Positions 7,704-33,375 of a stretch of 64,000 nt of DNA are shown in pieces. The position numbers and the translations under genes are program-made. Numbering within the stretch: the stretch's first letter is position 1; each line of letters opens with the position of its first letter. Origin of the DNA: a virus; the IMG/VR virus record IMGVR_UViG_2785510761_000001; one strand, written 5' to 3'. Under the pieces are notes generated by a model. The model was given only the letters and a program-made list of their open reading frames with translations, had not been told where the DNA came from and ran no database searches.

Positions 7704-7743
7704 GCACTCATTACGAGCGGCCGAGCTCGGGGGTTACATGCGC

Positions 7744-8637
7744 TCAGAGACCCAGGTGCCGATTCTGTCGCTCCAGCCACATCTGCCGCTCGTCGCTGCC
7801 CCATTCGCTCCACGCGAGAGGTCGCTTCACTCCGGACTCAGCGATTCTCCGCGTCATCTCGACGCGAGAGACGATCTCGCTCAGGTGACGGTCGGCTGTT
7901 GCGACATCCCCGCGGGACGTTGCTGACTCGAGGCCTTCCAAGCCCCATGCGACGAGACGGTTATCTTCGGCCTCTTCACGAAGCATCTGCAGGTTCACGT
8001 ACTGAAGGCGACCGCTGGCCCGCAGCGCATCGAGCGCGAGCTCTTCAGGGGCGCTGGCCGGCGTGACCAACACTTGGGGTTCGTCGTACTCCTGCTCTTC
8101 CGCGGCATAGATCGGGGTTCTGTTATCGACTGTGCGTTCGGGCATCGGCGGCCGGAACTCGTACCTGCCGGCGCAGCTATCACACATTGCCATGGTCTTC
8201 TGCTGGGGCACCCAGTACACCTTACGTCCGGTGCCGTCAGCGATCGCTTCGCTGCATCTCACGCACTTCCTGCGCTTATGGGCAGGAGCGCCACGATCCT
8301 CGAGCTGGGTGTGAAGACGGTCATGGTCGAACACCAGCTTGCAGATCTCGTCCGGCTCACCAGATGCTTTCCAGTAGGCCGCACTGGTTGTGGCCGCCCC
8401 AGGGATCGAACCCTTGGGGGATTCAAGCGCTTCGCGGTACCCAGGGATCACCTCAGCGAGGTGGAGGCGGGCAGCGTCCACCTGGGACGCGTCAGGGCTG
8501 CTGCTGGAATATCCGATGATCGTACGCTGCGCCGGCGGGGCACCGGCATCTCTGCTGTGAGCGGCGAAGCTGCCGGAACTTCCGCCGTTCGCCGTCGCGC
8601 CGAGGCCAAGGTTCTTGCGTCTCGTGTTGTTGCTCAT
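7744..8637 (-). CDS. Hypothetical protein with shared N-terminal tag and CxxC pair
   Basis: MSNNTRRKNLGLGATANGGSSGSFAAHSR; CVRC...CDSC. Confidence 0.8.
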   Translation of the reverse strand: MSNNTRRKNLGLGATANGGSSGSFAAHSRDAGAPPAQRTIIGYSSSSPDASQVDAARLHLAEVIPGYREALESPKGSIPGAATTSAAYWKASGEPDEICKLVFDHDRLHTQLEDRGAPAHKRRKCVRCSEAIADGTGRKVYWVPQQKTMAMCDSCAGRYEFRPPMPERTVDNRTPIYAAEEQEYDEPQVLVTPASAPEELALDALRASGRLQYVNLQMLREEAEDNRLVAWGLEGLESATSRGDVATADRHLSEIVSRVEMTRRIAESGVKRPLAWSEWGSDERQMWLERQNRHLGL

Positions 8638-9578
8638 GCTTTGATTATGGACGGCTGCAGAGCGACTGCATGCGCAAGCGCGATTCCGATGTGCTCGGCA
8701 AGCTTCGGGGGTACGGCGTTCCCCACCATCTGTTCGGCGTTCGTGCGACTACCGACAAACATGAACCCTGGTGGGAACGTCTGTATCGCGGCACGCTCTT
8801 TCAAGGTGAGTGCTCTGACTTCCGACGGGGCCGAGGCGTCGCCCGGATGCTGCTGGTAGGCCGGAGGCATCGGGCGGTTCACTCCACGGATAGTCGGACT
8901 CGGTTCGTCGATTGAGAAGATTGCACGTCGTGCGTACGAGCGTGGATGCCGGTAGTACGCCTCGACCCCCAGTGATTCTCCTAAGGCTTCCCGAACGGTC
9001 ATTGGGCGTGATGCAGCGCTGTCACGGATCAGCTGGAAGATCTGCTCAGTGAGAGAACGATCTTGGGTGCCGATGGTGACGAGGCGCTTCCGGGATTGAG
9101 GAGCGCCATACAGTGACGCATCGAGCACCGCCATCTGCACACGGTATCCGGCACCTTCCATGACGGACACGGCAGACTTGAACGCCGCAGCGTGCCGGGC
9201 TCGCGCCACATTCTCCATCACGAAAAGTGGTGGACGGAACCTACTGATGATCGCAGCGAACTTCTCAGTGAGGTCTGCGCGGGCTCCTTCGACCCGGTGC
9301 CCGGCGGATGAGAAGTCCTGGCATGGAGGCCCGCCGACGACGATGGGGAACTCACGTCCGCCGAGCTCATACTGCTCAAGTTCCAGGAAGGTAGCTTCAA
9401 GATCACCGAGGTCAAGAAGGTTCGCATCATGGCCCAAATTCTGCGTGTATGTATCAACCGCACAGGGCCAGGAATCGTAGCCGCGGAGCACTGTGAAACC
9501 CGCAGCTTGCAGGCCAAGACTCATCCCGCCGCATCCAGAAAACAGGTCAATAACGGGCGGCAGCGATTCTGTGTGCAT
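8634..9578 (-). CDS. dcm: DNA (cytosine-5)-methyltransferase, orphan
   Basis: DLFSGCGG, GGPPCQDFS, ENV, QSRKR, GNAVPP motifs; leaderless start MHTES 8 nt after motif at 9587-9595. Confidence 0.92.
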   Translation of the reverse strand: MHTESLPPVIDLFSGCGGMSLGLQAAGFTVLRGYDSWPCAVDTYTQNLGHDANLLDLGDLEATFLELEQYELGGREFPIVVGGPPCQDFSSAGHRVEGARADLTEKFAAIISRFRPPLFVMENVARARHAAAFKSAVSVMEGAGYRVQMAVLDASLYGAPQSRKRLVTIGTQDRSLTEQIFQLIRDSAASRPMTVREALGESLGVEAYYRHPRSYARRAIFSIDEPSPTIRGVNRPMPPAYQQHPGDASAPSEVRALTLKERAAIQTFPPGFMFVGSRTNAEQMVGNAVPPKLAEHIGIALAHAVALQPSIIKA

Positions 9579-9716
9579 CGCATCTGAATGCGCGGCGCCA
9601 CCCAAAATCAGCCCGTGTCAGATGCGGCGTAGCGGCAAAACCCCGTATGTGATCGGGGTGAGTCAACCTCCTCGGGGGTTCGCTCCCCAGGGCAGACACA
9701 TGAGAAGGGCCATCAG

Positions 9717-10013
9717 ATGGCGAACAGTAAAATCGTCTCCTACGGAGAAATCGAGAGCGCGGCTTCACAGCTCGGAGCAGGTCGCGAGGAGATCACCTCC
9801 AAGCTCACGAACATACAAGCGGAGATCGGCAGCCTCGTCAGCTCCGGCTACGTGACCGATCAGGCTTCGGCTAAGTTCAACGAGGCATACAACCGCTACA
9901 CTCAGTCCGCGAACTCGCTCATCGCCCATCTGAGCGAGATTCAGTCGTTCCTCACGCAGACCGCCAACGCGATGCGTGACATGGGCGCGCCGATCGCGTC
10001 TCGAGACATCTAA
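9717..10013 (+). CDS. WXG100/ESAT-6 family type VII secretion substrate
   Basis: 98-aa helical hairpin protein, VSYGEIESAASQL...SGYVTDQAS.KFNEAY...FLTQTANAMRD; RBS GAAGGG. Confidence 0.85.
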   Translation: MANSKIVSYGEIESAASQLGAGREEITSKLTNIQAEIGSLVSSGYVTDQASAKFNEAYNRYTQSANSLIAHLSEIQSFLTQTANAMRDMGAPIASRDI

Positions 10014-10201
10014 CCTCTCTGCACAGGAACCAGGAAGGCAGGCATCCTCGCGTCTCTGTCACCGCCCACTGGCTCACCTCGGCGATAGGCAACGCGAAAG
10101 GCAGTACTTCCTCAGACGCAATGTCGCCTCACGCAGAACAGTCAGCCTCTCGACTCGGTCGACTTGCTGCCTGTTCTGCGTGAGGCCCACGATCGAGGTG
10201 A

Positions 10202-10443
10202 TCAGTCATCCTCATTTGGGCTGCACCGTGGGTAGCTCTGCTCGTGCGCATCCCACCCTTCGGGGTCGGCGTACCAGCGAGTTGAGTCGTGCTCACTCCA
10301 CAGATGGCGGGGGTTGACGCTCGAATTCATGTAGTTGTCGCAGCAGTTGTAGGCGTTGTCTCCGCCGGAGCGGTCGGGCGGCCCATCGGATCTCCGTGAT
10401 CCGGGCACAGTGCTGGTGTCCAGCATGTTTGAGAGCAAGCCAT
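10202..10443 (-). pseudogene. Small Cys/His-rich protein split by an apparent 1-nt frameshift
   Basis: TGATG-coupled start MACSQTCWTP..CPDHG continues in another frame as NAYNCCDNYM..RHLWSEHDSTRWY; adding one C in the run at 10382-10384 joins them. Confidence 0.4.
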
Positions 10444-11141
10444 CACACACCCCACACCGCTTCAGCGACTGCATGCGTGCGATGCCCCTGCCACAGAGCA
10501 TACGAGGACGAACTTTCGCCGCAGATGCAGCGGCCAGCGAAGACACCGCTCTCGAAAATCGCTTCATGGCCGTGCAGCGCAGCTTCAAGCTTCCGGTCAT
10601 CTCGTGCACTGCTCGCGCGGCGGGGACCGCTGGGAGAATGACCTCCAGTGCTGCTGCTCTCGTCGGGCATCCCACCGCGCCCGCCGCCAAGCTCGCCAAG
10701 TACGGCACGCGTGATAGCGGCAGTGATCGGCTCGTGCCGGCCGTTGCTGTTCCACACACGCTGGGCTGAGTCGATGGCTGCGTAGAGTTTCGCCTCATCC
10801 ACTTCCAGCCCGCCAGGATTCCTGGCAGGTGCGCCCACGGCGATGCCGACAGCTTCGAGCGCGTTTCGCATTCCGTGCGACCCGGCCGTCATTTCCAGTG
10901 AACACAATTGGTCTTCGTTGATCGTCGATGTGATCTGTGGTGCGATAGGACCCACGGTCGCGATGGACTTGAACGCTTCGGAGCCTTCGCGGTAGAGACG
11001 AAACCGTGCTTTTATTTCAGCGGACTCCTCTGCCGTGTATGTGTGGCGGGGATCGATTGCGCCAAGCTCGCGCAGATACCCCAGCTCTGCAAAGGTCAAG
11101 ACCGCTTCGATCTGCTCAGGGGTTGGTTCTACGTTCGACAT
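10443..11141 (-). CDS. Hypothetical protein (MSNVEP...)
   Basis: RBS GAGGGA, motif at 11183-11191, C-terminal H..CxC..H pattern. Confidence 0.7.
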   Translation of the reverse strand: MSNVEPTPEQIEAVLTFAELGYLRELGAIDPRHTYTAEESAEIKARFRLYREGSEAFKSIATVGPIAPQITSTINEDQLCSLEMTAGSHGMRNALEAVGIAVGAPARNPGGLEVDEAKLYAAIDSAQRVWNSNGRHEPITAAITRAVLGELGGGRGGMPDESSSTGGHSPSGPRRASSARDDRKLEAALHGHEAIFESGVFAGRCICGESSSSYALWQGHRTHAVAEAVWGV

Positions 11142-11176
11142 GCTTCCCTCTCGTGAGCCGCACTGTGCGCCTCCAG

Positions 11177-11650
11177 CTAGGGAATGCGCGGCTGGAGTGC
11201 GTCGGGGAGGTCGTTGAGCGTGGCCTTTGGCATCCGGCTGAACGCCTCTGGCCACTGCCATGCGAGCCGAACGATTGCCGGAAGCACCGGAACGTCGTAG
11301 TAACGTTCCCTCGGCTCTTCGCTTGAGTAGAGGAGGGTCGCAATCTCCTGAGGGTCATCGGTCAGGTGAAACCCGCGCACATAGCCATCCGGGGCCGATC
11401 TCCACTTGCTGAGGTTCGGGCGCCCTTCAACATCCAGCGGATACCCGGCGTGAGTTTCTACGAACACGTGATCCCAACACCACTCCTCAAGCACCAGGCC
11501 CGGTTCGTCCTCTGGCCAGTACGCCGCAAACACCATCCGGAAGCCGAACATCCGATGAAGTGCTAGCGCGAGCACCCAGCAGTCGCCGTACAGGAACGCC
11601 TGACGTTCAACTTCGATGTCGCTCTGGCGAGTGCTCACCGTCGACATCAT
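11177..11650 (-). CDS. Hypothetical protein (GDCWVLALALH ... H motif)
   Basis: ATGA overlap with the ligase gene; 157 aa. Confidence 0.7.
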   Translation of the reverse strand: MMSTVSTRQSDIEVERQAFLYGDCWVLALALHRMFGFRMVFAAYWPEDEPGLVLEEWCWDHVFVETHAGYPLDVEGRPNLSKWRSAPDGYVRGFHLTDDPQEIATLLYSSEEPRERYYDVPVLPAIVRLAWQWPEAFSRMPKATLNDLPDALQPRIP

Positions 11651-13953
11651 GACCGCATGCTCTCTTCCCCATGTGCTTCGAACACGCGCGCGAGGTCAAG
11701 GCGGGGGCTTCCGTCTACCCCATCCACCGTAAACTCACCAAGGGTGATACGATCCCACACGCCGGTGGATCGCAAGTCGGCTTCCAGTCCTGAATGCCGC
11801 TGACCCAGCGTGTCCGCAGCGCCGCACCAGAACCGCTCGAGAACCCCGCGTGTTGCCTTGCGCTCAGCGTACAGGTTCGCCTTCAACTTGCTTCGGTACC
11901 CACTCGCGTCCACCAGCACGACACCCTCGTCCGACCGCCCAAGCGCGTCATCGAGAGCGTCAACAATCTCTTCGGGGGAGTGCAGGATTCGTTCGGCATC
12001 CGCGACCCCGAATCCGAAGCGTCGGGAGATGCCCCGCCGGATGCTCTCGTCCGTCTCGAACTTCACCACGTTGCGGATGCAGTCCAGTAGCACGAGCCTG
12101 TCACCGCCCGGCTCCGCGATCGGGTGAGTGTCGCGTGCTGCGATCACCTCGAATACGGCGGTCGTGTTTGTGCGCGAAAGCATGCCCGCGAGCGCGGCGG
12201 CGTTCATCACGTCACCCAGGTGGTTCACGAGCATCTGCTCTGCGAACTTCGAGTACGGGGTGATCCCGGACTTCGAGAACACCACGAGTTTGCCGCCTAC
12301 ACTGGCCACCAGCGCCAAGTACCCGTTGTACTTCTTGCGCACCTCGACCGGATATGCCGTGGTCAAGCGGTTCAACCAGTGCTCATGAGACCGGCCTGGG
12401 TCTTCACCGACGTGGAAGAATTTCTCGTACCCACGCGCCGCGATCTTCCCAGTTGCCTCGTTGATGAACAGACCGCGGGCGTGGACGGTCAGATCATCCC
12501 ACGAGCCCTTCCGGAACGCCTCACGGGTGAAGTTACAGGCCACAATGTCAGTGAGGCCCAATACTGGCTTCACCTTCACATGCTCTGACTCCCGCATGTG
12601 CGTGAGCAGATCAGTAGCGTCGGTCGGATCGAGGTTCTTCCTGACCCAAGGCCTCATGCGGTTGCGCGCAGCGGTGGAGGCGTCGACACGGTCGTTGAAG
12701 TGGTGGACAGAGTAATGCCCACTTGCGCTGAGCTCAGCAACGCTCACGCTGCCGCCAGCAGATGCCCCTGACTCCAGGCAGATGATGGGGTCACCATGCA
12801 CGTCATACGAGACCGTGTCGACAGGGCGGTCCTCCGGCTGGCTGTTGCGGTGGCCATGCAGCTGCCATCCAGCCAGCGGCATGTCTGCCACGTTGTAGCT
12901 GGTCTTGCCTCGGTACGTCTTCCCGCGGGTGCTTAGACCGTAGACACACTCGGCCTCAGCGATGTGTTCGGTCATCCCGTCCATGATCTTCTGACGCGTT
13001 CCCGCGCCCACGCCGCCATGCGTGACCAGCCAGTCTTCCCCTCCGATGTGCACCACCAGGTATGGCTGCGTGGCATCCACGAACGCGTTCTGCTCGCCGG
13101 CCATCACTCCGGCGCCGAGCAGCTTGTTACGAGTATCACGAGTGTCGGTGTGCCGGGATGTGGTGGTGTGATTGTTCACAGCGCGTAGGTGCTGCTCATG
13201 GTTGCCGGTAATGACAGTGCCACGACCCTCCGCCAACATCTTCTGGACGGTATTCCATACACCAACCGGGTCTGGGCCGCGGTCAAACAGGTCACCAGCG
13301 AACACCCAGTGCGGACGGTCGTCACCGTCGAACTCATCGACTATCCGGTCAAGTGCGTCGGAGCACGAATGCACGTCCCCGACGACGATTACGCGCCCCT
13401 GCGAAGTAAATTCTGGCACGCTGGTTGCGATGGCGATGCGCTGCTGAACAAAGGAAAGATCTGCAGTGCCGTCGATCACGCCGACGACATTTGGACTCAC
13501 CGGCTTCTGGGCGCAGCGCTCGTACATGCTCTCTAGTTCATCGGTATCGATGCGACTCGTACCTCGACCAGAGTTTCTGATCATCAGCTCGTCCAGCGTG
13601 ATTTCCCCCTGGCAGTCGATCAACCACGTTCGGTAGCCGTACTCCTTGGCGAGATTGATGATGTCGTTCTGATACTTCACCTGGGAGCTTGTCGCATCGA
13701 AGAATACGGTTGTCCCCGCTGCGAGTCGGGCCCTGAGTGCGGCGAGGGTTGCGGTTCTCGCAGCGAACTCCGCTTCATCGTTCAGTCGCAGTGTCTCGCC
13801 GAGAGATCCGTCCTTCTCGACGCATGGGAAAGCTACCGAGAACAGCTCACGAAACTGGTCGTACCCAACTGTCAGGTGTTCTACCTGAAGTGCTCGGATA
13901 AGTGAAGTCTTCCCGGTGCCGGGAGCTCCGCTAAGCAGAAACAGCGAACGCAT
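11647..13953 (-). CDS. Polynucleotide kinase / metallophosphoesterase / RNA ligase fusion (PNKP-Rnl RNA-repair type)
   Basis: GAPGTGKT P-loop; GDVHS, GDLFDRG, GNHE, THGG, HGH phosphoesterase motifs; ARGLF, YEKFF, KYNG, FEVI, EGVV ligase motifs. Confidence 0.88.
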   Translation of the reverse strand: MRSLFLLSGAPGTGKTSLIRALQVEHLTVGYDQFRELFSVAFPCVEKDGSLGETLRLNDEAEFAARTATLAALRARLAAGTTVFFDATSSQVKYQNDIINLAKEYGYRTWLIDCQGEITLDELMIRNSGRGTSRIDTDELESMYERCAQKPVSPNVVGVIDGTADLSFVQQRIAIATSVPEFTSQGRVIVVGDVHSCSDALDRIVDEFDGDDRPHWVFAGDLFDRGPDPVGVWNTVQKMLAEGRGTVITGNHEQHLRAVNNHTTTSRHTDTRDTRNKLLGAGVMAGEQNAFVDATQPYLVVHIGGEDWLVTHGGVGAGTRQKIMDGMTEHIAEAECVYGLSTRGKTYRGKTSYNVADMPLAGWQLHGHRNSQPEDRPVDTVSYDVHGDPIICLESGASAGGSVSVAELSASGHYSVHHFNDRVDASTAARNRMRPWVRKNLDPTDATDLLTHMRESEHVKVKPVLGLTDIVACNFTREAFRKGSWDDLTVHARGLFINEATGKIAARGYEKFFHVGEDPGRSHEHWLNRLTTAYPVEVRKKYNGYLALVASVGGKLVVFSKSGITPYSKFAEQMLVNHLGDVMNAAALAGMLSRTNTTAVFEVIAARDTHPIAEPGGDRLVLLDCIRNVVKFETDESIRRGISRRFGFGVADAERILHSPEEIVDALDDALGRSDEGVVLVDASGYRSKLKANLYAERKATRGVLERFWCGAADTLGQRHSGLEADLRSTGVWDRITLGEFTVDGVDGSPRLDLARVFEAHGEESMRS

Positions 13954-14008
13954 GGTGTGTCCTTTCAATGGCGCATCATGCGCCGACACACTGGCAATGC
14001 GCGGCCGT

Positions 14009-14347
14009 TCACCGCCCGAATTCGACAGCCAGGTGGGTGAGCATCGCCTCCGCGGCCTCCCACTCCTCCTGGCTGAGGGCGGGATGGTCAACATCGTGCA
14101 CAGGGACGATCAAGCTGCACACAACAGCGCGGGCGTGAGCGGATGGAATTTCCGCCAGGCGGTCTGCGCCGTCGGTGAGAGTCTCGATCAGGCGTTCGGC
14201 CGCAGTGAACTGTTCGGCAGTCCAGCAATACACTCCGCCGGCGTGAACATCGTCGACCTGTGCGAGAAGTGCGTTATGAATAACGAGTCGGTCGGCAGCG
14301 CTAAGCGCCGTCGGTTCGGCGAGCCCCGGAATCGTCAACGAACCCAT
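14009..14347 (-). CDS. Hypothetical protein
   Basis: 112-aa ORF overlapping the stop of the upstream gene. Confidence 0.6.
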   Translation of the reverse strand: MGSLTIPGLAEPTALSAADRLVIHNALLAQVDDVHAGGVYCWTAEQFTAAERLIETLTDGADRLAEIPSAHARAVVCSLIVPVHDVDHPALSQEEWEAAEAMLTHLAVEFGR

Positions 14348-15135
14348 GGTTCCTCAATGTAGTCGCAACTGGTGCCGGTGCACGATCTCTTCCATCCCGG
14401 CCCGAACACTTCCGGGTTGATCTCGCACTTCGGGCAAGCATTTCCGGTGAGCGCGTAGGACACACCGCCGACGAAGACTTCCTCCCCAGCGAACCAACCG
14501 CGTGCGCGTGCGGTGTCGCCCAGCAGGCTGCCGAGGATGAAATGAGCGGCGCGTTTCGCCTTGTTCCGTTCAGTGTCATACACCGTGTCGTCAGCGATGA
14601 TCTGCCCGATGCCTTCGCCGACCCATGCGCCAGTAACCCCTGTCGGTAGCAGCGCCGAGTGCTCGGCAAGATACTGCTCAACGGTCGTCGCGATGGGCAC
14701 GGCAGTCCCTCTGGTGCGGTCCAGGGCTCGCGCCAAGTCCTGGACGAACGCTTCCATAGGAACATCTCGAATCTGGTCGCTTGGGAGCGCCGATACTGGC
14801 TCCGCGCCAGATGCATCGAGAGTAAGCATGGCCGCTGCCACTTCGCATTGAATCCAGTCTTCGCGCTCCTGCGAGGGGCGATCTCGATCGCCCGCCCCAG
14901 CCCCGTACGCGATGGCTGTACGGATGCGGGATTCAATCTCCCTCCGCACCTGCTCCAGTTTTCCAGTCGCAGTTCCGTTCAGCGTCTCAAGTACACGGTC
15001 AGCCATGAACTCACTCCATTTGCGGTGCAGATCACCGGGGAACACGCCATCAAGCACGCCCGGCTCGTCGGCAGGCGTGCTTTCGAACATGGCAACCAGC
15101 AGGTCACGTGAAATGCTCAACGGACGACCTCCCAT
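14335..15135 (-). CDS. Hypothetical protein with C-terminal CxxC..CxGxxC
   Basis: 266-aa ORF in a coupled operon. Confidence 0.65.
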   Translation of the reverse strand: MGGRPLSISRDLLVAMFESTPADEPGVLDGVFPGDLHRKWSEFMADRVLETLNGTATGKLEQVRREIESRIRTAIAYGAGAGDRDRPSQEREDWIQCEVAAAMLTLDASGAEPVSALPSDQIRDVPMEAFVQDLARALDRTRGTAVPIATTVEQYLAEHSALLPTGVTGAWVGEGIGQIIADDTVYDTERNKAKRAAHFILGSLLGDTARARGWFAGEEVFVGGVSYALTGNACPKCEINPEVFGPGWKRSCTGTSCDYIEEPWVR

Positions 15136-15464
15136 GTTGCGCCAGGCAGGTCGGATGCTGCGCGAACGAGCTCGTCTCCGTGTTCCGCACTTAGCAGTGC
15201 TTCCGCTTCAGCGCGCGTATCTCGGCCGCGGATGCTGCCGTCTGTGTATCGCACGCCCCAGCGATAATCGTCATCGGCGCGGACGGTTCGACCGAGGATG
15301 ATCAGTTCGACCGACTCAGGGTCGTCGGCACGCTGAGCTGAGAGGTCCAGCAGGTCGGAAGCGAGCTCAACCAGCGCGCGGTCGTACTCGGGGCTCTCTC
15401 CACTGCACGAAGCCAACAGCCGTGCAGTTTCGATGATCGCTTCTGTGCTCAGCGTGACGCTCAT
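15117..15464 (-). CDS. Hypothetical protein
   Basis: RBS GAGGG, motif at 15510-15518. Confidence 0.7.
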   Translation of the reverse strand: MSVTLSTEAIIETARLLASCSGESPEYDRALVELASDLLDLSAQRADDPESVELIILGRTVRADDDYRWGVRYTDGSIRGRDTRAEAEALLSAEHGDELVRAASDLPGATWEVVR

Positions 15465-15539
15465 GATGCCCTCTCACTGACGGGAACCGCTCCCGCCATC
15501 TGATCAGGTAATGCGCGGGCAAAGTTCCCACACTCAAGC

Positions 15540-18981: not shown

Positions 18982-19046
18982 GGTGGCCTCTCCTGGCCTG
19001 CGATACTTTCGCGGCTCTGAACACCAATGCGCGGCGCTTTCGCGCC

Positions 19047-23930: not shown

Positions 23931-24148
23931 CGTGCCTCCAGGCTCTCTGTGGATAACGCTCGAATGCGCGGCACCCATGGGCCTCAACGGTCAGTGAACC
24001 GGCCCAGGTAGCGGGGAGATTGCTGTGAGTGCTTGCGCTGGCCTGAGCGGGTGAGGGGCGAGTGAGGTCGTTCGACAAGATGTGGACACGTGCCATACCG
24101 CTACAAGTCACGCCGCTATTTATCGTCGTTCGAGGGCAAGTTCCGGAG

Positions 24149-24164
24149 TCGAACATATCTTCGA
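24149..24164. promoter_or_regulatory. LexA (SOS) box-like palindrome
   Basis: TCGAACATATCTTCGA, one mismatch to the actinobacterial TCGAAC-N4-GTTCGA consensus; further half-sites to 24190. Confidence 0.45.
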
Positions 24165-24209
24165 ACATGGATGTTCGAATTATGTTTGCGAGGAGTGATC
24201 GAGCAATCA

Positions 24210-24510
24210 GTTTTGCCCGGGTTTGGGCGTGTTTTGCCCGGGTTGCTCACCCGTTTACTCGGGCTACTTCCCTTACGGGAGTAAGGTTCTCCCGGTTTGC
24301 ACGGTTTTTCTGGAAATCTGCCTCCCCTATAGACAGTGAGTAACTGTTTCACCGGTTTTGAGTTTCTGCATCTATCTATCTATTTCTCTATTAAGAGATA
24401 AATAGATATAAGCCCGAGTAAACCGGGAGAGCACTACTCCCGTAAGGGATGCAGCCCGAGCACGAACCCGGTTTTGCCCGGGCAAGGCCGAGTAAAACCG
24501 GGCAAACGGC
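24210..24510. repeat. Candidate replication origin: 43-bp inverted repeats around an AT-rich core plus 12-bp iterons
   Basis: IR 24256-24298 / 24420-24462 (37/43 identical); AT-rich core 24370-24410; GTTTTGCCCGGG at 24210, 24231, 24471. Confidence 0.6.
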
Positions 24511-25204
24511 GAAACCATGCCATTTTCGAGGCTCATGCCCCGGTCGCCGGCCCGACGAGGGTACTTGCGCGCAAACAGTCCTCCCGCAGCCGATCTCAAG
24601 CGCCGGCGTAGAGGCGCCCCGAAAACGGGTGCGGGGCCGGGAAACGAGCGTCCAGGGCCGTTTCCGGCCGCGTTCAGCTCCTATTGGCGCCCCGAGGACG
24701 TGCAGCGCTCCTGAAATCGGTTGAATCGTGGTCGATATGCACGCGCGCCTACGCGCGTACGCGGGCGCGCGCCCGACCAGGGGAAACGCTCGCAATTGGA
24801 CGCTGGAGAGTTATTGGGCTCAGTCAAACAAAGGTAATACATAGCCTAGTTTCGAGCTCAGTCATTCGTGCCATTCGAACTCGTGGGTTGCTGACCCTCA
24901 CAAAACCACGATTCAGGTCATTATCAGGGTCGGCACGGTAGGCTCAGTCGAGCGTTCCCGAGCCTACCGTGATTCCACGCCTGTCGAGAAATCCATGCCC
25001 ATGAGATCACGGACCAACGAGATATTCGCCAGGAGCTCGTTTCCCTCGATCAACTGGTCAGCCCTCAGAGTATCGGCCATTCGCCCGCCGTCTCCAAGCT
25101 TTCTCCTAAGCAGCTTCCGGTGACTGAATCCCCTTGAAAGAGCAGGGCGGCATGAGCGCGGCACCGGACGATCGCGGGTCGTTTCGCGCTCAATTCTCAG
25201 CTTG

Positions 25205-25732
25205 CTATGTGTCCTGCCCTGGGGTAGTAGTCGTCGTCATCTCCACCTGAACCCCTGCCATCTCGAACAGGCGCTCTGATGCCTTGGTGAGGCCGACCGC
25301 TGATAGATAAGGACGCGCGACAATGACCCGCCGCACACCCACCTGGATAAGTTCCTTGGCACATTCGTTGCACGGATAGTGAGTGACATACGCAGTTGAG
25401 CCGGCCAGCTCTCGCAAAATTCCTCGGAAGTTCAACACGGCGTTGCGCTCCGCATGGATCACGAACGGGTATTTCGTATTTAGCGGATCTTCATCATCTC
25501 TGCCCCACGGCATCTGGGTGTCATCCACCCCGTTCGGCATCCCGTTGTAGCCGAGCGACAGCACTCGGTTATCTGACGAAACAAGCACCGCCCCAGTCTG
25601 AGTGTTCGGGTCCTTCGATCGTTGCCTCACGGTCTCAGCGATCTGCATGAAGGTCTCACCCCAGGACAACGGTGTGCGCGGCAAGTCCCTTGGGCGCTCA
25701 TGCCGCTCCTCGGCAAGCTTCTCAGTGCTCAC
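25205..25732 (-). CDS. dCMP deaminase (ComEB-like)
   Basis: RSKDPNTQTGA, LGYNG, HAERNA, PCNECAK. Confidence 0.9.
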   Translation of the reverse strand: MSTEKLAEERHERPRDLPRTPLSWGETFMQIAETVRQRSKDPNTQTGAVLVSSDNRVLSLGYNGMPNGVDDTQMPWGRDDEDPLNTKYPFVIHAERNAVLNFRGILRELAGSTAYVTHYPCNECAKELIQVGVRRVIVARPYLSAVGLTKASERLFEMAGVQVEMTTTTTPGQDT

Positions 25733-26550
25733 CTCGACTCCTCTACTTTCTCGCTGATCTCAGCCTTCGTGGGACGGGTGAAGAACCCGAAAGACGTGTC
25801 GGTGTCGGATGGCTTGACGGTTGCAGTGAACTTTATCTCGCGGCCGATCAGAGCCCCCGTCCAGACACCGATCCCGTCATCCGCGGGGTCATTACCGTCG
25901 GCGCTGTAGAACGCGTAGTACTCGCTGTCGGCGATACTCTTAGGCACCGAGCCCCAGACTTTCCAGCCTTCACCCTCAACCAGCATCTTCAGGGTGGAGC
26001 CGAAGTCGGAATCGACGTACTTTGCGCTGCGGATGGTGCCGACGATCTCAAGCCGCCCTGACGGTGCTGGACGCTTTGCTGCTTCGCGCTCATCGAACGC
26101 TACAAGAATCTCCCGCAGCTCGGTTTCCCAGGCTGCCGCGTCGAACTCAACGGGGTCGCCGCCAATAGCATCGAGGTTCCAACTCAGCTTGCGATGGAAC
26201 GGGTCTCCGTCACTGAGCCCGTCCAGCACGGCTTTCGCTCGGTCGACAAGCTCGCCGTACTTCGCACGGAACTGCTCTTCGCGCTCTCGCGCCGCCTCGA
26301 TCCGTGTCTGTCGTTCCAGGGCTTCGCGAGCGTGCCGGCGCGCTTTCGCCCGAGCGCTCGAGACGAGGAATGAATGTTCGCCGGTGCCCATGCAGTCGAA
26401 GCATCCGGTCGTGACGAACCCCACGGTCTTCGTGTGGAAGCTCGCGTTGGATGACGCATCGTAGACGCCCGTTCCGTGGCATTTCCCGCACGTTTCAGAG
26501 ATGCGTTCCTTGCCTTTGCGGCCGGGGTACGGATCCACATATTCGCTCAT
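25729..26550 (-). CDS. Zn-finger (CxxCxGxG x2) protein with possible C-terminal OB-fold
   Basis: CGKCHGTG..CFDCMGTG; SDFGSTLKMLV..GWKVWGSVP; motif at 26585-26593. Confidence 0.65.
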   Translation of the reverse strand: MSEYVDPYPGRKGKERISETCGKCHGTGVYDASSNASFHTKTVGFVTTGCFDCMGTGEHSFLVSSARAKARRHAREALERQTRIEAAREREEQFRAKYGELVDRAKAVLDGLSDGDPFHRKLSWNLDAIGGDPVEFDAAAWETELREILVAFDEREAAKRPAPSGRLEIVGTIRSAKYVDSDFGSTLKMLVEGEGWKVWGSVPKSIADSEYYAFYSADGNDPADDGIGVWTGALIGREIKFTATVKPSDTDTSFGFFTRPTKAEISEKVEESR

Positions 26551-26594
26551 CGCGCCGCCTCCTCAGGTGTGTTGATGTGGAGGCAATGCGCGGC

Positions 26595-27965
26595 CTACGG
26601 GGAGGGAGGCGGGGAGGATGGTCGCTGATGAGTGGTGAAACTCCCACCGTTTCCGCCCGCAGCTGTCTTGTCTAAGCCGCGGTCTTTTCGACGATCCTGT
26701 CCATTGCTGACGCGAGAGATCGGAATATGGGTGGAGGCTCGATCCGATCGTTCAGGGAGACCAGCAGCGCGTTCGGCAGTGCGGAGCAGCAACTCCATTT
26801 CCCTCGGGTGAGTTTGAGCCATTTTAGTGCGAGCCAGGGTCTCTTCCACGTGATCCAAGAATTTTAAGTTCACGTCCTGCACGATCCCGAGCACCCGATC
26901 TACATCCAGCGAGGACTTCCTGCTCAGCCTGACCCAATCGCCTGCCGCCACCCCTTTTGCGTAGCGCTGGTTTCCGACTCGCATTCCGAGCTTCTGTTCG
27001 TATCCGGGCATCAGGGCGATTGGAACTGTGTCGTAAATCGGGGAGAGCGTTACACCGTCTTCTTGGTGCATCAGCGTGTAATTCTTCGCGTGTGCGTCAG
27101 CGTTCCCGATGGTGATGTTGAATGCCAGCTGCTCAATGAAGTCATAGCGGACGTTCTCATCGACCCCGTACTTTCGAAGGAGCCCAATGGTTCGCTGTGC
27201 GCCCACGACGTACTTCTCTTCGGGAGAGAAACCCAGTGCCTGCGCAACGTCCTCCGTGTGCAACCGCACCACAGCCCCGCCGTCGGTCTCCGCCCGATCA
27301 AACCTCTTGGTCATGAAGGCAGTCTGCCCATGGAAGACAGCGACCCGGGATTCTGCAGCGCTGATGCCCATGCGCTGCGCAAGATCGAGAGACGCTGCTT
27401 CAACCTCATCCAGGCCGGGGTGGTCAGTTCGTGCAGGCTTCACAATATGGGTAGAAGGTGTGGCGGCATCTGGCCAAAAGCATTCACCGCGGTCAATTGT
27501 CAGTGCGAATTTCCCTTGAGCTCCCGCCAGTGAGAATCTTGGTGGGGCACTGAAATCACCGAGGCCCGAGCCTCCTCGCTTAATCTCCGTGATCCTGGCG
27601 CTAATTTCCGATTCCTGAGCGAGCTCGGTGAAGTCTTCCCCGCGACCCGGTTGAGTCTCCTGGGTCGTCAGCAGTACACCGCCGGGGAGGTCGGCGTTGG
27701 CTGCGCTGAGCAGATCCCACGATTCGGTGCTGCGTGCGTGAGTCAGTTCACGCATGTTCTCTTTCGCTCCGGGATCCTCAGGGATGAGGCCGTCGAGGAA
27801 GTTTTGCGGGGACTTCTTCGTGAGCGGGCCGTCGTAAGGCAGCGACAGTGACAGGTGTCGCCTAGAGCCCTGGTCATACACGAAGGTTGCTCGGTGTGCT
27901 GGTGAGACTTTCTCGAACACACCAACGTGCTCATCGCCGATCCACGCGTGTAGATACTCAGGCAT
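26595..27965 (-). CDS. hipA: HipA-family Ser/Thr kinase toxin with C-terminal copy of the shared tag
   Basis: LSLSLP and FLDGLIPE (N-terminal couple domain), SLAGAQGK, HIVKP, KRFDR, GNADAHAKNY, LSPIYD. Confidence 0.9.
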   Translation of the reverse strand: MPEYLHAWIGDEHVGVFEKVSPAHRATFVYDQGSRRHLSLSLPYDGPLTKKSPQNFLDGLIPEDPGAKENMRELTHARSTESWDLLSAANADLPGGVLLTTQETQPGRGEDFTELAQESEISARITEIKRGGSGLGDFSAPPRFSLAGAQGKFALTIDRGECFWPDAATPSTHIVKPARTDHPGLDEVEAASLDLAQRMGISAAESRVAVFHGQTAFMTKRFDRAETDGGAVVRLHTEDVAQALGFSPEEKYVVGAQRTIGLLRKYGVDENVRYDFIEQLAFNITIGNADAHAKNYTLMHQEDGVTLSPIYDTVPIALMPGYEQKLGMRVGNQRYAKGVAAGDWVRLSRKSSLDVDRVLGIVQDVNLKFLDHVEETLARTKMAQTHPREMELLLRTAERAAGLPERSDRASTHIPISRVSNGQDRRKDRGLDKTAAGGNGGSFTTHQRPSSPPPSP

Positions 27966-28590
27966 GAGCACTCCTTTCAGTACGAACGTGAACTGCAGGG
28001 ATGCGTAGTGTCTTCACGATCCGTGCGACGTCGCGGTTACCGCGGGGGGAGTAGCCGGTGCGCTCGATCGTGTGTATCACAGAGGTTGGAACATCCGTAC
28101 GTTCGGCCAGCTCGCCGGCGGACACGCCTCGGATAGCTCGCCAATCGGAAATGCGGCCACGAACACTATCCGGGGAGTCCAGAACCCACATCCCCATGTG
28201 CTTCTGAGCATCACGCACCTGCTGGTCGAACCCGCGTAGAGCGGCCCTTACAACTGCGGCGCCACCTCTACCTTCCGGAGCGGATCCGGCCCACCAGTCT
28301 CGCAACAGGGCCACAGGGTCTGGCGAGTCGATGAACTCTCGAATGCGAGCTGCCGCTCGAGCTTTACGCACCCCAGTGATCCCATCGAATGTCTTATGAT
28401 TCATCCATCGAAGCACATCGGAGCGTGACTGCTCAGACAACCGGCGACGGGAACGGCGAACGATGAAGGCTGTTTCATCCACCTCCCACACCCCGGACAC
28501 TTTTCTCGCGGGGATGCGCCCCTCTCGAGCAAGCCTGGCTGCGCGTTGGACAGTGATTCCCTCTGATCGTGCAAACTCAGAAATCTTCAT
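27958..28590 (-). CDS. Double-HTH protein (excisionase-like N-terminus, Xre-like C-terminus); probable HipA antitoxin/regulator
   Basis: MKISEFARSEGITVQRAARLAREGRIPARK; RAIRGVSAGELAERTDVPTSVIHTIERTG; directly upstream of hipA. Confidence 0.7.
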   Translation of the reverse strand: MKISEFARSEGITVQRAARLAREGRIPARKVSGVWEVDETAFIVRRSRRRLSEQSRSDVLRWMNHKTFDGITGVRKARAAARIREFIDSPDPVALLRDWWAGSAPEGRGGAAVVRAALRGFDQQVRDAQKHMGMWVLDSPDSVRGRISDWRAIRGVSAGELAERTDVPTSVIHTIERTGYSPRGNRDVARIVKTLRIPAVHVRTERSAHA

Positions 28591-28705
28591 AACACAAGCG
28601 TTTCACGCTGGCCTAAGAAACACAAGTGTTATGGGGCGCGAGGTGCCGTGCGTTGCCCATAGGGCGGGGGAGTGGTAGGTGTTCTGAACGCACTCTTACC
28701 TCTGG

Positions 28706-29812
28706 TCAGCAGATACTGATCGGTGATCCAGCGGGCCGCGGCGCCATGCGCGGAAACGCTTTCGAAGTGGCGAGTGCCTCCACAAGCATCTGGACGTTGA
28801 GTGCGTATAGGCCAGCGTTCAGCAGACTGTTGAGCTCGACGACGAGCGGGACATCGTTTGAGCCCAGCGCAACATCGAGCACATAGCTCCTGTTCTCCGG
28901 CTCCTCCTCCCGCACCTTGCGCGCGACCATGCGTCCGAACTCCACCAGACGCTCCACCACATCAGGCCGTTCGACGATGGCATGTCTCTGGTCGCGCACA
29001 CGCTGCACGCGTGGGTCGAATTGAAGCCCTGTGCTGTTGAGTGGCGTGAAGTCCACGATGCACCCCGCGCCTACAGCGACTTCATGATCCACCACGAACA
29101 AGCGGTACTCGTAGTGCATGGGCACCGCGCTCTGCACGAGGTAGGCATCACGGGTAGCTGCGAAGTGGTACGTCAGCCATTCTCCGCCATCGCCGAAGCA
29201 GTTGTCGAACGCTTCCCACAGCTCGGCGTCACTGAGGCTTGCGATCTGGTGGATGTACCCGATGCCCGCGGTCTTATCCTTGGCGACAATTTTGACGGCG
29301 GCACTGTCGCCGGCGGCCCGGAGCGCTTCGACCACGTCGGCGCGGTCGATTGGCCCACCGTCTCCCTGCTCTAGGGCTGAGCAGAGTCTTACAAACCGTC
29401 CAGCGTGATCCTTGAACGCAGTCAAGCGGGAGTACCCCTGACGGTTCACGTAACTCGCCATCTCAGGTTCAGGGTCGGTGGTGGGGATAGGTCCCCATAT
29501 GTGCGCACCAGCCAGGTCACTGAGCAGGCGATCCTCACCGGTGCCCACGTTCACTGCGCGCTCATTGTTCCAGCCGCCATATTTCGGTTGGCCGAGCTGC
29601 CGCACCCAGAGCCGTTCGCGCGGCCAGCAGGCGAATGCTTTCTCCATGCGCAGCGCATCTTCCACGAACAGGTCGAAGTCGTCTGTGCCTTCTTCCCGAA
29701 CGTTGGGTACCCACTGCTTGACGAGGGAGATGAGCCTGTCGAGCTCCGGCGTGCGTTCCGCAAAGATCGGGATGGGGTGGCCTGAGCTCACCACGAGATG
29801 GTTTTCGTACAT
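28706..29812 (-). CDS. ATP-grasp domain protein (R2K-like)
   Basis: YLVQSAVPMHYEYRLFVV, YVLDVAL, VVELNS..AGLY. Confidence 0.6.
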   Translation of the reverse strand: MYENHLVVSSGHPIPIFAERTPELDRLISLVKQWVPNVREEGTDDFDLFVEDALRMEKAFACWPRERLWVRQLGQPKYGGWNNERAVNVGTGEDRLLSDLAGAHIWGPIPTTDPEPEMASYVNRQGYSRLTAFKDHAGRFVRLCSALEQGDGGPIDRADVVEALRAAGDSAAVKIVAKDKTAGIGYIHQIASLSDAELWEAFDNCFGDGGEWLTYHFAATRDAYLVQSAVPMHYEYRLFVVDHEVAVGAGCIVDFTPLNSTGLQFDPRVQRVRDQRHAIVERPDVVERLVEFGRMVARKVREEEPENRSYVLDVALGSNDVPLVVELNSLLNAGLYALNVQMLVEALATSKAFPRMAPRPAGSPISIC

Positions 29813-29832
29813 GACGCTCCAAGGTCTGTCGG

Positions 29833-30426
29833 TCAGTTGACGGCTGGTCCCAAGTAGGTGCAGCGGTTCGCCTGCACAGTCTCAAGCGCGCCAGAGCGGG
29901 CGTGCTGCACATGCACCTGGCGTGCCCGACGATCGCTGGGAGGCGCATCGGAAATGATCAGCCAGGTGCCGCTCAGCCCCCTCACACGAACGGCCGCACC
30001 CGGAGTGAGGGTCCCGGACTTGTGCAGAGCAGCTTTGGTCGGCCGATGTGCTCGTGGCTTCCGAGCTTTCCGCCGATGCGTGCCAATGAACTGCTCCAGT
30101 GACTCCGCGCTGCTGTTGGTTTGGGAGGTAACGATCTGGTCTGCATCGCTCAGCAGGAACTTTGTGGGGATCGTCATGCTACTCGACGCGTACTCCAGGT
30201 CACTCTTATCGGTGAGCTGCGGCTCGGCGAGAGGAACGATGCGCGGGGGCCCCGCCAGCGGGCGCGTGTAGGTGGCGTTCGGGTCACGGGCGTAGCCCAG
30301 CATGTAGCCACGGTACTTTTCACCGTCATGCTTGATGACCGTCACGACCTGACCGTTGGCGAGGTTGCCGCGGCCGATGCATCCAGCGCCAGCAGTAAAC
30401 GAGCGCGATTCTTTTCGCAGCGACAT
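29833..30426 (-). CDS. Hypothetical basic protein
   Basis: Start MSLRKES after RBS GGAAGG; motif at 30469-30477. Confidence 0.6.
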   Translation of the reverse strand: MSLRKESRSFTAGAGCIGRGNLANGQVVTVIKHDGEKYRGYMLGYARDPNATYTRPLAGPPRIVPLAEPQLTDKSDLEYASSSMTIPTKFLLSDADQIVTSQTNSSAESLEQFIGTHRRKARKPRAHRPTKAALHKSGTLTPGAAVRVRGLSGTWLIISDAPPSDRRARQVHVQHARSGALETVQANRCTYLGPAVN

Positions 30427-30479
30427 GAGCAGCCTTCCTGAGCCGGTGTCTCCGGGTTCCAGGGTGTAAATGCGCGGCA

Positions 30480-31223
30480 CTACCCGTTGAAATCAGGATT
30501 CCTGTCGTAGGTGATGAGGCGTTGTGACTGAGGCTTCGAACGGCAGTCGCCTCGAGTGCAGATGTAGCTGCGTGTGCGGGGCATCCCGTCACGGTAGCTG
30601 GTGTGGGACTGATCGTTTGGGCATGTGCCACGGTATCTACGCATGACGTGCACCGGTGCAGCCAGTTCAGCGGCCGTGCTCTGGTGGTTCATCCGAACCT
30701 CGACGTCACTCATGCCGTGCCGGTTCAGCAAGGTGCGGAACTTCTCCCGCCAGCCTTTACTGTGGCCGCTGTGCTTATCGTCAATGCCGTGCGCGACTTC
30801 ATGCAGGATGGTGTCCGCGATAGTACGTGGCTCTTTGGTGCGCAGCTGTGGGGCGCTGAGCTCGATGAGGTTCTCATTCAGCGATGGGTCGACTCGGCAG
30901 GTGACCTGCTTGTTCCAGGCCAAGGAGGTGTTGCTCTGCATCCACCTCCCGAAGGTGAGGGCCGTGCCAAATGGTGGGTGCCTTGCTTCGGGCGTGCAAC
31001 GGATGATCTCGATGGTCGCCTGTTCGATGACTTCCTTGCGCTGAGACCAAGGCGTGGCGAACCAGGATTCTGGGTCTGTGTCGAGAAGCCGGCTGAAATT
31101 CGGGGTGATCAGTACCGGCGCCGGGGGAGCTCCCGCCTCCCGGCTGTGGCTTGCGAAACTGCCACCTGATCCGCCTCCTGCGGTCTTTCCGAGTCCGAGG
31201 TCCTGTCTGCGGGAGCCAATCAT
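30480..31223 (-). CDS. SprT-like zinc metalloprotease with shared N-terminal tag
   Basis: TILHEVAHG..GHSKGWREKF; C-terminal Cys cluster; starts MIGSRRQDLGLGKT. Confidence 0.82.
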   Translation of the reverse strand: MIGSRRQDLGLGKTAGGGSGGSFASHSREAGAPPAPVLITPNFSRLLDTDPESWFATPWSQRKEVIEQATIEIIRCTPEARHPPFGTALTFGRWMQSNTSLAWNKQVTCRVDPSLNENLIELSAPQLRTKEPRTIADTILHEVAHGIDDKHSGHSKGWREKFRTLLNRHGMSDVEVRMNHQSTAAELAAPVHVMRRYRGTCPNDQSHTSYRDGMPRTRSYICTRGDCRSKPQSQRLITYDRNPDFNG

Positions 31224-31245
31224 GCTCACTATTACGGGCGGCACA

Positions 31246-31279
31246 CCAAAGCGGCCCGACATCAGCCGGGCCGCTTTGG
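31246..31279. terminator. Intrinsic terminator-like hairpin
   Basis: 13-bp arms CCAAAGCGGCCCG / CGGGCCGCTTTGG just after the stop at 31284. Confidence 0.75.
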
Positions 31280-31283
31280 TGGC

Positions 31284-32426
31284 TCAGAACTCGTCGTCCC
31301 TGAAGAAGAGCTCGCGAACTTTCCTGCTCAGCGCCGTATAGTCTTCCTCCACACTTTCCGTGAGCTGCGTAAAGTCTACGCGCTGGCGACCGTCATCGCC
31401 GTTATGGATCGCGTGCGGGGCGTGCTCCTGAATCCCGCGCTTGAGGCTGCTGAACGCCTCATGATGCACCTGATAGTCATCTCGCTGATCGTAAGGGATG
31501 TCGTGCGGCCTGGTGTATTCACCTATGCGCGCCGCTGCTTTCGGGTGAGACCACGGGCGGTCCTTCGCCACCGTGATCGGCTGCAGCGCCTCGATGCGCT
31601 GAATGGACTCGGTGTCGCCGCGGCCGCGCGCGGTTTTGAGGGCGTGCGTCTTCGCGGCCTCGAACTCGTCGAGTGTGAATACGTTGTCGGCGCGGATCAG
31701 GCCGCTGTCATCATCTGCCGCGGCGCGAACGGGCTTATTGTCGATCGAGAATCCAGTGCCTCCGTGATTTCCTCCCATGCCGTAGATGTTGACCATGTAC
31801 ACCGGCTCTTCGGTTTTCCGCCAGAGCTCACCGTCGACGACGAGGTACCCATCAACCTCCGCCTGCACCATGTCGCGCGCGCCGGCTTCGCTGTCGTTGC
31901 CCTCCCGCTGATAGGGCTGAGTGACATGGACGAGCTCACCGGTCTCGTAGTCACGCTCGAAACGTGTGAGACGTTCACGGATACGCTCCGGGGTAGCTTC
32001 CAGCCGGTCCGATTTGTTCGGGTACGGCGGCTCCATAGTCGTGTTCGTGTACGACCAGATGTCGCCGGCGACCATCGGCCGGTACAGCTCACCGTCATAG
32101 TGCCGGACCTCGAACTCCAAGTCTCCGGAGCCACCGATGAACTCGTGGAACGTGAATGCCTCGCCTGTGTCTTCGCGGCTGACGCTTCGCACTTCAGCGT
32201 CCATCTCAAAGGTGCGCTCCACGTCTCGAGGGTTGCGGTGACGTGGCGTAGGAAGCACATCACGCTCCGTCCAGCGAACCGTGAACGGCTCGCTGATCAC
32301 CACGTCTGGCGCCGCCGATGACGGGGGCGGTGCGGCCGCGCCGCGCTCATGGCTCGCGAAGCTTCCACCAGAGCCGCCTTTCGCGGTCTTGCCGAGGCCA
32401 AGGTCTTGTCTGCGTGTGCTGCTCAT
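31284..32426 (-). CDS. Hypothetical acidic protein with shared N-terminal tag
   Basis: MSSTRRQDLGLGKTAKGGSGGSFASHER. Confidence 0.82.
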   Translation of the reverse strand: MSSTRRQDLGLGKTAKGGSGGSFASHERGAAAPPPSSAAPDVVISEPFTVRWTERDVLPTPRHRNPRDVERTFEMDAEVRSVSREDTGEAFTFHEFIGGSGDLEFEVRHYDGELYRPMVAGDIWSYTNTTMEPPYPNKSDRLEATPERIRERLTRFERDYETGELVHVTQPYQREGNDSEAGARDMVQAEVDGYLVVDGELWRKTEEPVYMVNIYGMGGNHGGTGFSIDNKPVRAAADDDSGLIRADNVFTLDEFEAAKTHALKTARGRGDTESIQRIEALQPITVAKDRPWSHPKAAARIGEYTRPHDIPYDQRDDYQVHHEAFSSLKRGIQEHAPHAIHNGDDGRQRVDFTQLTESVEEDYTALSRKVRELFFRDDEF

Positions 32427-32456
32427 ACCGCGAATTACGTGCGGCGCGCGTTCACC

Positions 32457-32564
32457 TCACTCGATGGTCTCGGTGGCCCCTTCGTCAGTTTCCTCGACTG
32501 TCCAGTCCAGATCGAACTCGTCGCCGTGCTCGTCAGTTTCAACGTACTGTGTGATCTTCGACAT
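32457..32564 (-). CDS. 35-aa highly acidic peptide
   Basis: MSKITQYVETDEHGDEFDLDWTVEETDEGATETIE; starts 4 nt after the SprT stop. Confidence 0.45.
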   Translation of the reverse strand: MSKITQYVETDEHGDEFDLDWTVEETDEGATETIE

Positions 32565-32568
32565 GTGG

Positions 32569-33345
32569 CTATCCAATGTATTGAGGGTTTCGGGCGTAGC
32601 TGATGAGGCGTTCGGCCTGCGGGACGCCGCGGCAGGCGCCCTGCGTGCAAATGTACATACGGCTGCGCGGCATGCCGTCACGATAACTGATGTGGGTGGG
32701 ATCCCTCTGGCAGGTGCCGACGATCTTCCGCACCATGCGAGCGGCGTGCTCACGGTCGGTGTCCCAGTGAATCTGCTCTACTTTCCGTTCAGTCATCCCA
32801 TGCCGGTCGAGCAACATGCGGTGCTTTTTCGCCCACCGGTCTCCGTGCCCGCCGCCCCAGTCGTCGATGCCGTGCGCGACCTCGTGCAAGATGGTGTTCG
32901 CGATGGTCTGAGGCTCTCTCGTGCGTAACTGAGATGCGTTCATCTGAACAGTGTTTTCGTTCAACTCAGGCTGGGTCAGGTGCCTTCGTTTCGCATTCCG
33001 AGCCAGTGCGCTGCCCAGAGGCTTCCATTCACCGAAAGTGAGCGGTGTTCCGAAAGGCGTGTCCTGAGCTTCTGGGGTAGCGGCGATGATCTCTCGTGTC
33101 GCCCGCTCTACGATCTTCTTGCGCTCAGCCCATGGAGTGTTCATCCACTGCTCTGGGTCTGCCCTCATGATCTGCGCGAAGTTCGGAACCTGGCTCAAGT
33201 AGTTGGCATTCTGCAGCAGGTTTTCTTCAGTCTCAATGGCCGGGGGAGGCGCGGCCGCGGCCCTTCTGTGTGATGCGAAGCTCCCCCCAGAGCCCCCTCC
33301 GGCGGTCTTCCCGAGGCCGATGTCCTGTCGGCGGATATTAATCAT
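32569..33345 (-). CDS. SprT-like zinc metalloprotease paralog with shared N-terminal tag
   Basis: TILHEVAHG..GHGDRWAKK; starts MINIRRQDIGLGKT. Confidence 0.82.
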   Translation of the reverse strand: MINIRRQDIGLGKTAGGGSGGSFASHRRAAAAPPPAIETEENLLQNANYLSQVPNFAQIMRADPEQWMNTPWAERKKIVERATREIIAATPEAQDTPFGTPLTFGEWKPLGSALARNAKRRHLTQPELNENTVQMNASQLRTREPQTIANTILHEVAHGIDDWGGGHGDRWAKKHRMLLDRHGMTERKVEQIHWDTDREHAARMVRKIVGTCQRDPTHISYRDGMPRSRMYICTQGACRGVPQAERLISYARNPQYIG

Positions 33346-33375
33346 GTCGCGGATTACTTGCGGCACTGGTTGCAT

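Follow-up and report, generated by a model that had tools for sequence, protein, structure and literature searches.

Do genes that begin with the same protein tag also share a promoter of their own? The question is raised by a 64,000-nucleotide stretch of DNA (IMG/VR virus record IMGVR_UViG_2785510761_000001), called the window below. Five of its genes encode proteins with a common N-terminal tag of about 35 residues (M-x3-RRQDLGLGKTAxGGSGGSFASHxR..APP; 19 invariant columns), and beyond the tag the five proteins diverge into unrelated sequences. An earlier note on this DNA had proposed that these genes are preceded by a promoter variant (class II) distinct from the class I box (CCGCGCATT), that promoter and tag travel together as one module, and that the tagged proteins are co-expressed. 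Our reading, to which we assign a probability of about 0.6, is that the boxes form a promoter family private to the element, and that a sub-class ending in TAAT is kept by selection, is tied to the tag and would define a separate regulon. The tagged genes, with a few untagged ones, most likely make up a co-expressed regulon of their own, which would be read or regulated apart from the backbone genes behind class I boxes.

Two box classes in the window

On the minus strand, all five class II sites read as the earlier note had described them: G-CCGYN-MRTAAT, then 6-7 nucleotides (nt), then ATG, upstream of each of the five N-tagged genes (Table 1). The aligned hexamers are CGTAAT, CATAAT and AGTAAT, and the spacers between box and start hold no GGAGG-like run. 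The window has seven matches to the pattern CCGYNMRTAAT, where shuffles predict 0.22. This excess is inflated because the pattern was derived from the five sites themselves. Spacing provides an independent measure. An ATG lies 6-7 nt downstream of six of the seven matches, where the background rate is 0.028 (P = 3.5e-9), and six of the seven copies follow the orientation of the genes around them.

The class I box occurs in 26 exact copies in the window, every one co-oriented with the local genes, and the agreement holds across the strand switches near 43.9 kb and 61 kb. This is 30 to 60 times the density found in five Microbacteriaceae genomes, a comparison set without the host's own genome (26 copies in 64 kb versus 19-45 per 2-3.8 Mb). 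Aligned as 11-mers, the class I boxes at 6489, 9595, 35212, 43957, 45158 and 48001 also lie 6-7 nt before an ATG. Leaderless placement, which had been put forward as a trait of the tagged genes, is thus true of class II without being special to it, six or seven class I sites being equally leaderless. The remaining class I copies are followed, after 21-46 nt, by a start with a GGAGG-like ribosome site of its own. At 6 nt past the 11-mer, A is over-represented, which is what a transcription start point would show. Upstream of the boxes we found no conserved -35 element or operator; only the G at -1 of class II is conserved.

Class II sequences also occur away from the tagged genes. The earlier note had named two untagged carriers, of which the site before the gene at 45488 is real, with 6 nt to its ATG, and the variant CCGCTCGTAAG at 5365 is not in a leaderless register with its frame. 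The variant more likely feeds a leader of about 25 nt with an AAGGA ribosome site and a TTG start. The class II-like match CCGTCAGTAAT may be the promoter of a leadered transcript, or may match by chance.

Box and tag in related elements

We compared 21 N-tagged genes from 11 non-redundant loci, leaving out the near-identical loci L005 (96% identical to the window) and L007 (a duplicate of L006). A box stands 6-7 nt before the ATG or GTG in all 21, which extends to relatives the leaderless position seen for five of five in the window. In 18 of these genes it is a TAAT box (five in the window, six in L006, two in L008 and one each in L002, L003, L009, L014 and L015), and in three it is of CATA type (CATACC in L001, CATAGC in L004 and CATATA in L013). 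Among 16 untagged leaderless genes, TAAT precedes two (the window gene at 45488 and a Dam methylase gene in L014) and class I-type boxes precede 14. The association between tag and TAAT gives a Fisher p of 1.1e-5, although tests of this kind overstate independence here, the tags all being homologous. In L006, TAAT precedes all six tagged genes, and all ten exact copies of CCGCGCATT stand before untagged genes.

Conservation within the shared 5' end is uneven. Mean pairwise identity is 0.82 for the G plus 11-mer and 0.84 for tag codon positions 1 and 2; it is near random for codon position 3 (0.46), the spacer (0.38) and the upstream DNA (0.25). Homology between modules begins abruptly at GCCG and ends at about codon 35. 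Because the box is as conserved as the first two codon positions of the tag while its flanks are near random, this profile points to selection rather than recent copying. The two classes also differ in where they are constrained. Class II has T and A at positions 8 and 9 in 21 of 21 genes, A and T at positions 10 and 11 in 18 of 21, and G at -1 in 19 of 21, with positions 5-7 free. Class I is free at positions 10 and 11, avoiding A or T at position 10, and is fixed at positions 1-8 by definition, as its members were picked as exact CCGCGCAT[T/A] matches. Few forms intermediate between the two stand before genes. Given the conservation profile and this pattern of free and fixed positions, the association of box with tag appears to be maintained, not merely inherited.

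Two proposals of the earlier note were upheld in part by these comparisons. Class II is a real sub-class tied to the tag, and it is also found before the gene at 45488 and before the Dam methylase and glutaredoxin genes of L014. Promoter and tag do form one 5' end that precedes many unrelated cargo proteins; the limits of the single module are the three of 21 tagged genes with CATA-type boxes and a HipA protein of the window that has the tag at its C terminus and no class II box of its own. In L014 (17374-17453, plus strand), the untagged glutaredoxin gene follows a TAAT box and a leader of about 70 nt that contains a strong hairpin.

A second lineage has a box/tag pair of its own. Among DUF8359 homologues with a different N-terminus, the closest belongs to Leucobacter sp. 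HY1910, and we analysed its 21-kb neighbourhood (L016; GCA_054456635.1, contig JBTJEP010000020.1, 1-21134). There, 13 genes start with a diverged, recognisably related tag that opens with MSNINRHSAGAKQAGQSVGGQFAAS, and in all 13 an almost invariant block, CCGGTCTCA(Y)(R)CAGAGAC, abuts the ATG directly. The block contains a 5-base-pair (bp) inverted repeat, GTCTC-N5-GAGAC. No untagged gene of L016 has the box in this abutting position. The only other functional-looking copy lies before an untagged glutaredoxin gene, with a leader of about 50 nt and a ribosome site. From this position the box would act at a distance, as promoters do. A glutaredoxin gene is therefore found behind a tag-class box in both lineages, leadered and with TAAT in L014 and with the lineage's own box in L016. 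If the two genes are orthologous, tag-class membership would have been kept despite the differing box sequence. The HY1910 lineage appears to have rebuilt the tag-to-box rule with a different box. An IS605 OrfB/TnpB gene is inserted among the tagged genes of L016.

Alternative explanations

Under the reading that we prefer, the five sites would be core promoter elements of a family private to the conjugative element, with the consensus CCGC-N-C-R-T-W and no -35. The boxes would be placed so that transcription starts on the A of the ATG and yields a leaderless mRNA. The TAAT form (G-CCG-Y-N-M-R-TAAT) would be a distinct sub-class, kept by selection, that marks the tagged genes and a few untagged ones. 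Box and tag together would make up the common 5' end of many unrelated cargo genes, and each element lineage would carry its own box/tag pair.

Several points weigh against this reading. We infer from sequence that the boxes are promoters, that transcripts start at the ATG and that regulation is separate. No sigma family was found among the approximately 60 window proteins, 20 of which were scanned at E values up to 1 (Pfam, NCBIfam), and no region-2-like motif was found in the proteins of the window, which is part of a larger element. The tagged family P0027/P0062 looks sigma-like by eye, with a predicted model of low confidence (mean predicted local distance difference test score, pLDDT, of 55). 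The association of TAAT with the tag is partly inheritance, the three CATA-type boxes on tagged genes are close to class I, and the two classes have identical geometry and a common CCGC head; one factor may read both. The homology of the tags, the shared geometry and head and the class I-like boxes on three of 21 tagged genes also speak for an account with one promoter family and no separate control, in which TAAT would be an equivalent -10 variant, inherited with the ancestral tag module and frozen there. Several changes at once would be needed to reach the class I form, and class II boxes also precede untagged genes, both as a frozen variant would have it. We nevertheless find this account doubtful. 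In class II, any base may stand at positions 5-7 and TAAT is required at positions that class I leaves free, which argues for a different mode of recognition, with the reservation that class I is fixed at positions 5-7 by the way it was picked. In each of two lineages with differing boxes, the box of the tag class also stands before a glutaredoxin gene, and the exclusivity of tag to box was rebuilt in the HY1910 lineage with another box.

Could the boxes be ordinary sigma-A promoters of the host? Leaderless genes are common in Actinomycetota: about one third of the mRNAs of Corynebacterium glutamicum are leaderless, with the -10 a few nt before the start (PMC3890552). The earlier note had also called the class II hexamer close to TATAAT, which is true of four of its six positions. 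However, the -11 position, the key A of a -10, is G in 15 of the 21 class II sites. The TAnnnT hexamer, the sigma-A -10 at 97% of C. glutamicum start sites (Pfeifer-Sancar et al. 2013; PMC3890552), occurs in neither class and in no register within 20 nt of the five ATGs, and a two-hexamer promoter scan found nothing at the sites. In addition, the boxes have a conserved CCGC head, and the family is far denser here than in the Microbacteriaceae genomes. This is not a host-type -10, and we consider host sigma-A promoters improbable. A reading of the boxes as extracytoplasmic-function (ECF)-type promoters, with CGTA as the -10, was ruled out by the lack of a conserved -35 and by the way divergent boxes abut. 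It is more improbable still that the box is no promoter and acts on RNA or translation, as a start-associated sequence, a processing site or a regulator site in the 5' untranslated region. The L016 block would suit such a role, in that it reaches the ATG and holds the inverted repeat. Divergent boxes are only 6-37 bp apart, at 37 bp in the window, 6 bp in L002, 8 bp in L009 and L014 and about 25 bp in L016, and thus leave no room for an upstream promoter. Similarly, the class II box at 31241 follows closely on a terminator-like hairpin, so that the gene downstream needs its own promoter. Divergent pairs and terminator fit a self-contained promoter; an RNA-level signal that depends on a promoter further upstream does not fit. 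The same boxes also stand 21-70 nt before starts with their own ribosome-binding sites, they have no purine-rich complementarity to the 3' end of 16S rRNA, and no Rfam family matched in the window.

The element, its tagged proteins and comparable systems

Table 1. Boxes and neighbouring features of the window, with their distances to starts and adjacent genes
Feature	Sequence	Coordinates	Strand	Context
Class II box	CCGCTCGTAAT	7720-7710	-	G before box; 6 nt to ATG 7703; tagged gene 6507-7703, 398 residues, cargo family unknown
Class II box	CCGTCCATAAT	8654-8644	-	6 nt to ATG 8637; tagged gene 7744-8637, 297 residues
Class II box	CCGCCCGTAAT	31241-31231	-	7 nt to ATG 31223; tagged SprT-like gene 30480-31223
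Class II box	CCGCACGTAAT	32444-32434	-	7 nt to ATG 32426; tagged DUF8359 gene 31284-32426
Class II box	CCGCAAGTAAT	33363-33353	-	7 nt to ATG 33345; tagged SprT-like gene 32569-33345
Class II box	CCGCGCGTAAT	45471-45481	+	6 nt to ATG 45488; untagged Hjc/PD-(D/E)XK-like gene 45488-46225
Class II-like match	CCGTCAGTAAT	43722-43712	-	No start within 100 nt; 107 nt before ATG 43604 of LAETG surface-protein gene
Variant box	CCGCTCGTAAG	5375-5365	-	Upstream of GmrSD_C-like gene; not in leaderless register with that frame
Class I box	CCGCGCATTAG	6489-6479	-	6 nt before ATG 6472; one of six leaderless class I sites
Divergent back-to-back class I boxes		43919-43911 and 43957-43965	- and +	Within 43911-43965, 37 bp apart
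Terminator-like hairpin		31248-31277	-	Ends 6 nt before class II box at 31241
Repeat region	TTAGCG(A/T)TT	33364-33446		Intergenic; between class II box of gene 33345 and divergent gene 33447-34046 (+)

Judged by its proteins, the host of these boxes is a conjugative element and not a phage, and the label used in the earlier note stands. A phage reading, prompted by a Pnkp-RNA ligase fusion, a dNMP kinase, a NAMPT, an RNase H and a weak terminase-like match, was rejected because a 951-residue protein (49752-52607) groups with coupling proteins of the TraD/TrwB/VirD4 type and a 901-residue protein has an LAETG sortase anchor. A PDB sequence search with the 951-residue and 944-residue proteins found nothing. 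The remaining genes encode the usual cargo for anti-defence and DNA handling (C5 and N6 methylases, GmrSD_C, a nuclease, HipA/HipB and WXG100). The WXG100 (ESAT-6-like) gene (9717-10013, plus strand; Pfam E = 4.8e-15) lies on the opposite strand within a long minus-strand block. The RNA ligase fusion (815 residues; 11647-14094, minus strand) joins a P-loop kinase, a metallophosphatase and a T4-type RNA ligase 1; conjugative elements do not usually carry such a Pnkp-Rnl-like RNA repair enzyme. The host is likely to be Leucobacter-like, since the named relatives come from Leucobacter.

Two further features adjoin the boxes. The gene that diverges from the first gene of the three-gene tagged cluster encodes a 199-residue protein whose nearest atlas clusters are HTH_17-type DNA-binding proteins, which we treat as a lead. 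This probable helix-turn-helix protein and the TTAGCG(A/T)TT repeats beside its gene may be a local operator-regulator pair. Directly before the CCGCTCGTAAG box of the GmrSD_C-like gene, TTATCCACA, the DnaA-box consensus, occurs in two perfect copies (5419-5411 and 5408-5400, minus strand) with a near-copy, TTATCCCCA, just upstream; the DnaA-box-like copies span 5400-5433.

Two of the tagged window proteins are SprT-like metalloproteases and one is a DUF8359 protein. A search of 1.8 billion representative proteins with a profile of the tag returned 26 clusters, nearly all with an N-terminal tag on differing cargo (SprT-like, DUF8359, DUF7007, KTSC and unknowns). More distant DUF8359 homologues have no tag at all, and the cargo therefore exists independently of the 5' module. 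The C-terminal tag of the window's HipA (26595-26700, minus strand) has counterparts in the HipA-like P0030 and in one chromosomal Microbacteriaceae protein (L012; G151:C1:665079-665165). Because it is found at either end of a protein, the tag works as a portable linear peptide. The HipB/HipA operon has neither class I nor class II boxes; upstream of it (28591-28660, minus strand) are two ACxCTTGTGTT repeats, possibly the HipB operator, and a stretch, CGCCCCATAAC, that loosely resembles class II.

Only two matches to the tag were found in 401 Microbacteriaceae genomes, one of them C-terminal, and a search of genome contigs matched one contig of a Leucobacter metagenome-assembled genome. Metagenome contigs gave no match to the tag. 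BLAST returned no match, whether plasmids were searched with window positions 30400-33500 or plasmids and phages with the tag, and the low-complexity filter of these searches may hide the tag. No loci related to P0005 or P0043 were found in genome contigs. In the public gene calls P0015, P0017, P0023, P0026 and P0062, the start is placed too early and the promoter box itself is translated. The false N-termini, ...AARNNC-M and MPLVIIC-M (AARN..., PLVI...), back-translate to CCGCxCGTAAT plus the spacer.

What might the tag be for? Delivery through a type IV secretion machine is plausible, the window encoding both a TraD/TrwB-type coupling protein and an LAETG surface protein. We also offer a tentative and rather speculative extension, in which box and tag would be a portable 'express-and-deliver' cassette. 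Proteins would be made on one signal and sent to recipients by an actinobacterial conjugative type IV machine, the pairs of each lineage (TAAT with RRQDLGLGKT..., GGTCTCA with RHSAGAKQAG...) would co-evolve, and the box would serve as a key for listing the delivered effectors.

Other mobile genomes have promoter regulons of their own. The late promoters of T4 (TATAAATA), read with gp55, and the SigN/ZpdN regulon of the Bacillus plasmid pBS32 depend on a factor that the element encodes. As here, a short -10-only signal, unlike host promoters, precedes most transcription units of one element. They differ from the present case, where two sub-classes coexist, one of them tied to a protein tag, and where no reader was found in the window. 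Other actinobacterial elements have candidate leaderless boxes, CCGCACAC followed by 9 nt and GACGCATA, which are leads only. The start-associated sequences of Cluster K mycobacteriophages are another short motif that recurs within a single mobile genome, immediately ahead of many of its start codons. They contain the ribosome-binding site and are part of the transcript, whereas the motif here precedes separate ribosome sites, or abuts the start with the spacing of a promoter, and occurs in divergent pairs. The leaderless promoters of actinobacteria (PMC3890552) resemble ours in having a -10-type element 6-7 nt before the ATG, no ribosome-binding site and no strong -35. Unlike them, the boxes described here do not have a TAnnnT hexamer, have a conserved CCGC head and are concentrated in the element.

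The pairing of box and tag has its closest likeness in type III secretion. Stavrinides and colleagues reportedly described, in 2006, a 'terminal reassortment' of the 5' ends of type III effectors. For the HrpL/hrp-box regulon, which comprises type III effectors of Pseudomonas syringae, the box serves to identify members (PMC3879358). Both share with our element a dedicated box and an N-terminal address on many unrelated cargo genes. The hrp-box regulon serves type III secretion and its signal is loose, whereas here the setting is a Gram-positive conjugative type IV system with mRNAs that would be leaderless, the peptide of 35 residues is strongly conserved, and secretion is putative.

These results bear on how tagged genes are annotated, as gene callers often start them too early and translate the promoter. 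They also bear on Gram-positive conjugative elements in general, for which little is known about the control of cargo or about the delivery of protein beside DNA. A clean sequence rule connects one promoter sub-class with one protein tag, holds in several relatives and recurs, rebuilt from different sequences, in another lineage. It provides a testable list of co-regulated and probably co-addressed proteins, which includes SprT-like proteases, a HipA kinase and many unknowns.

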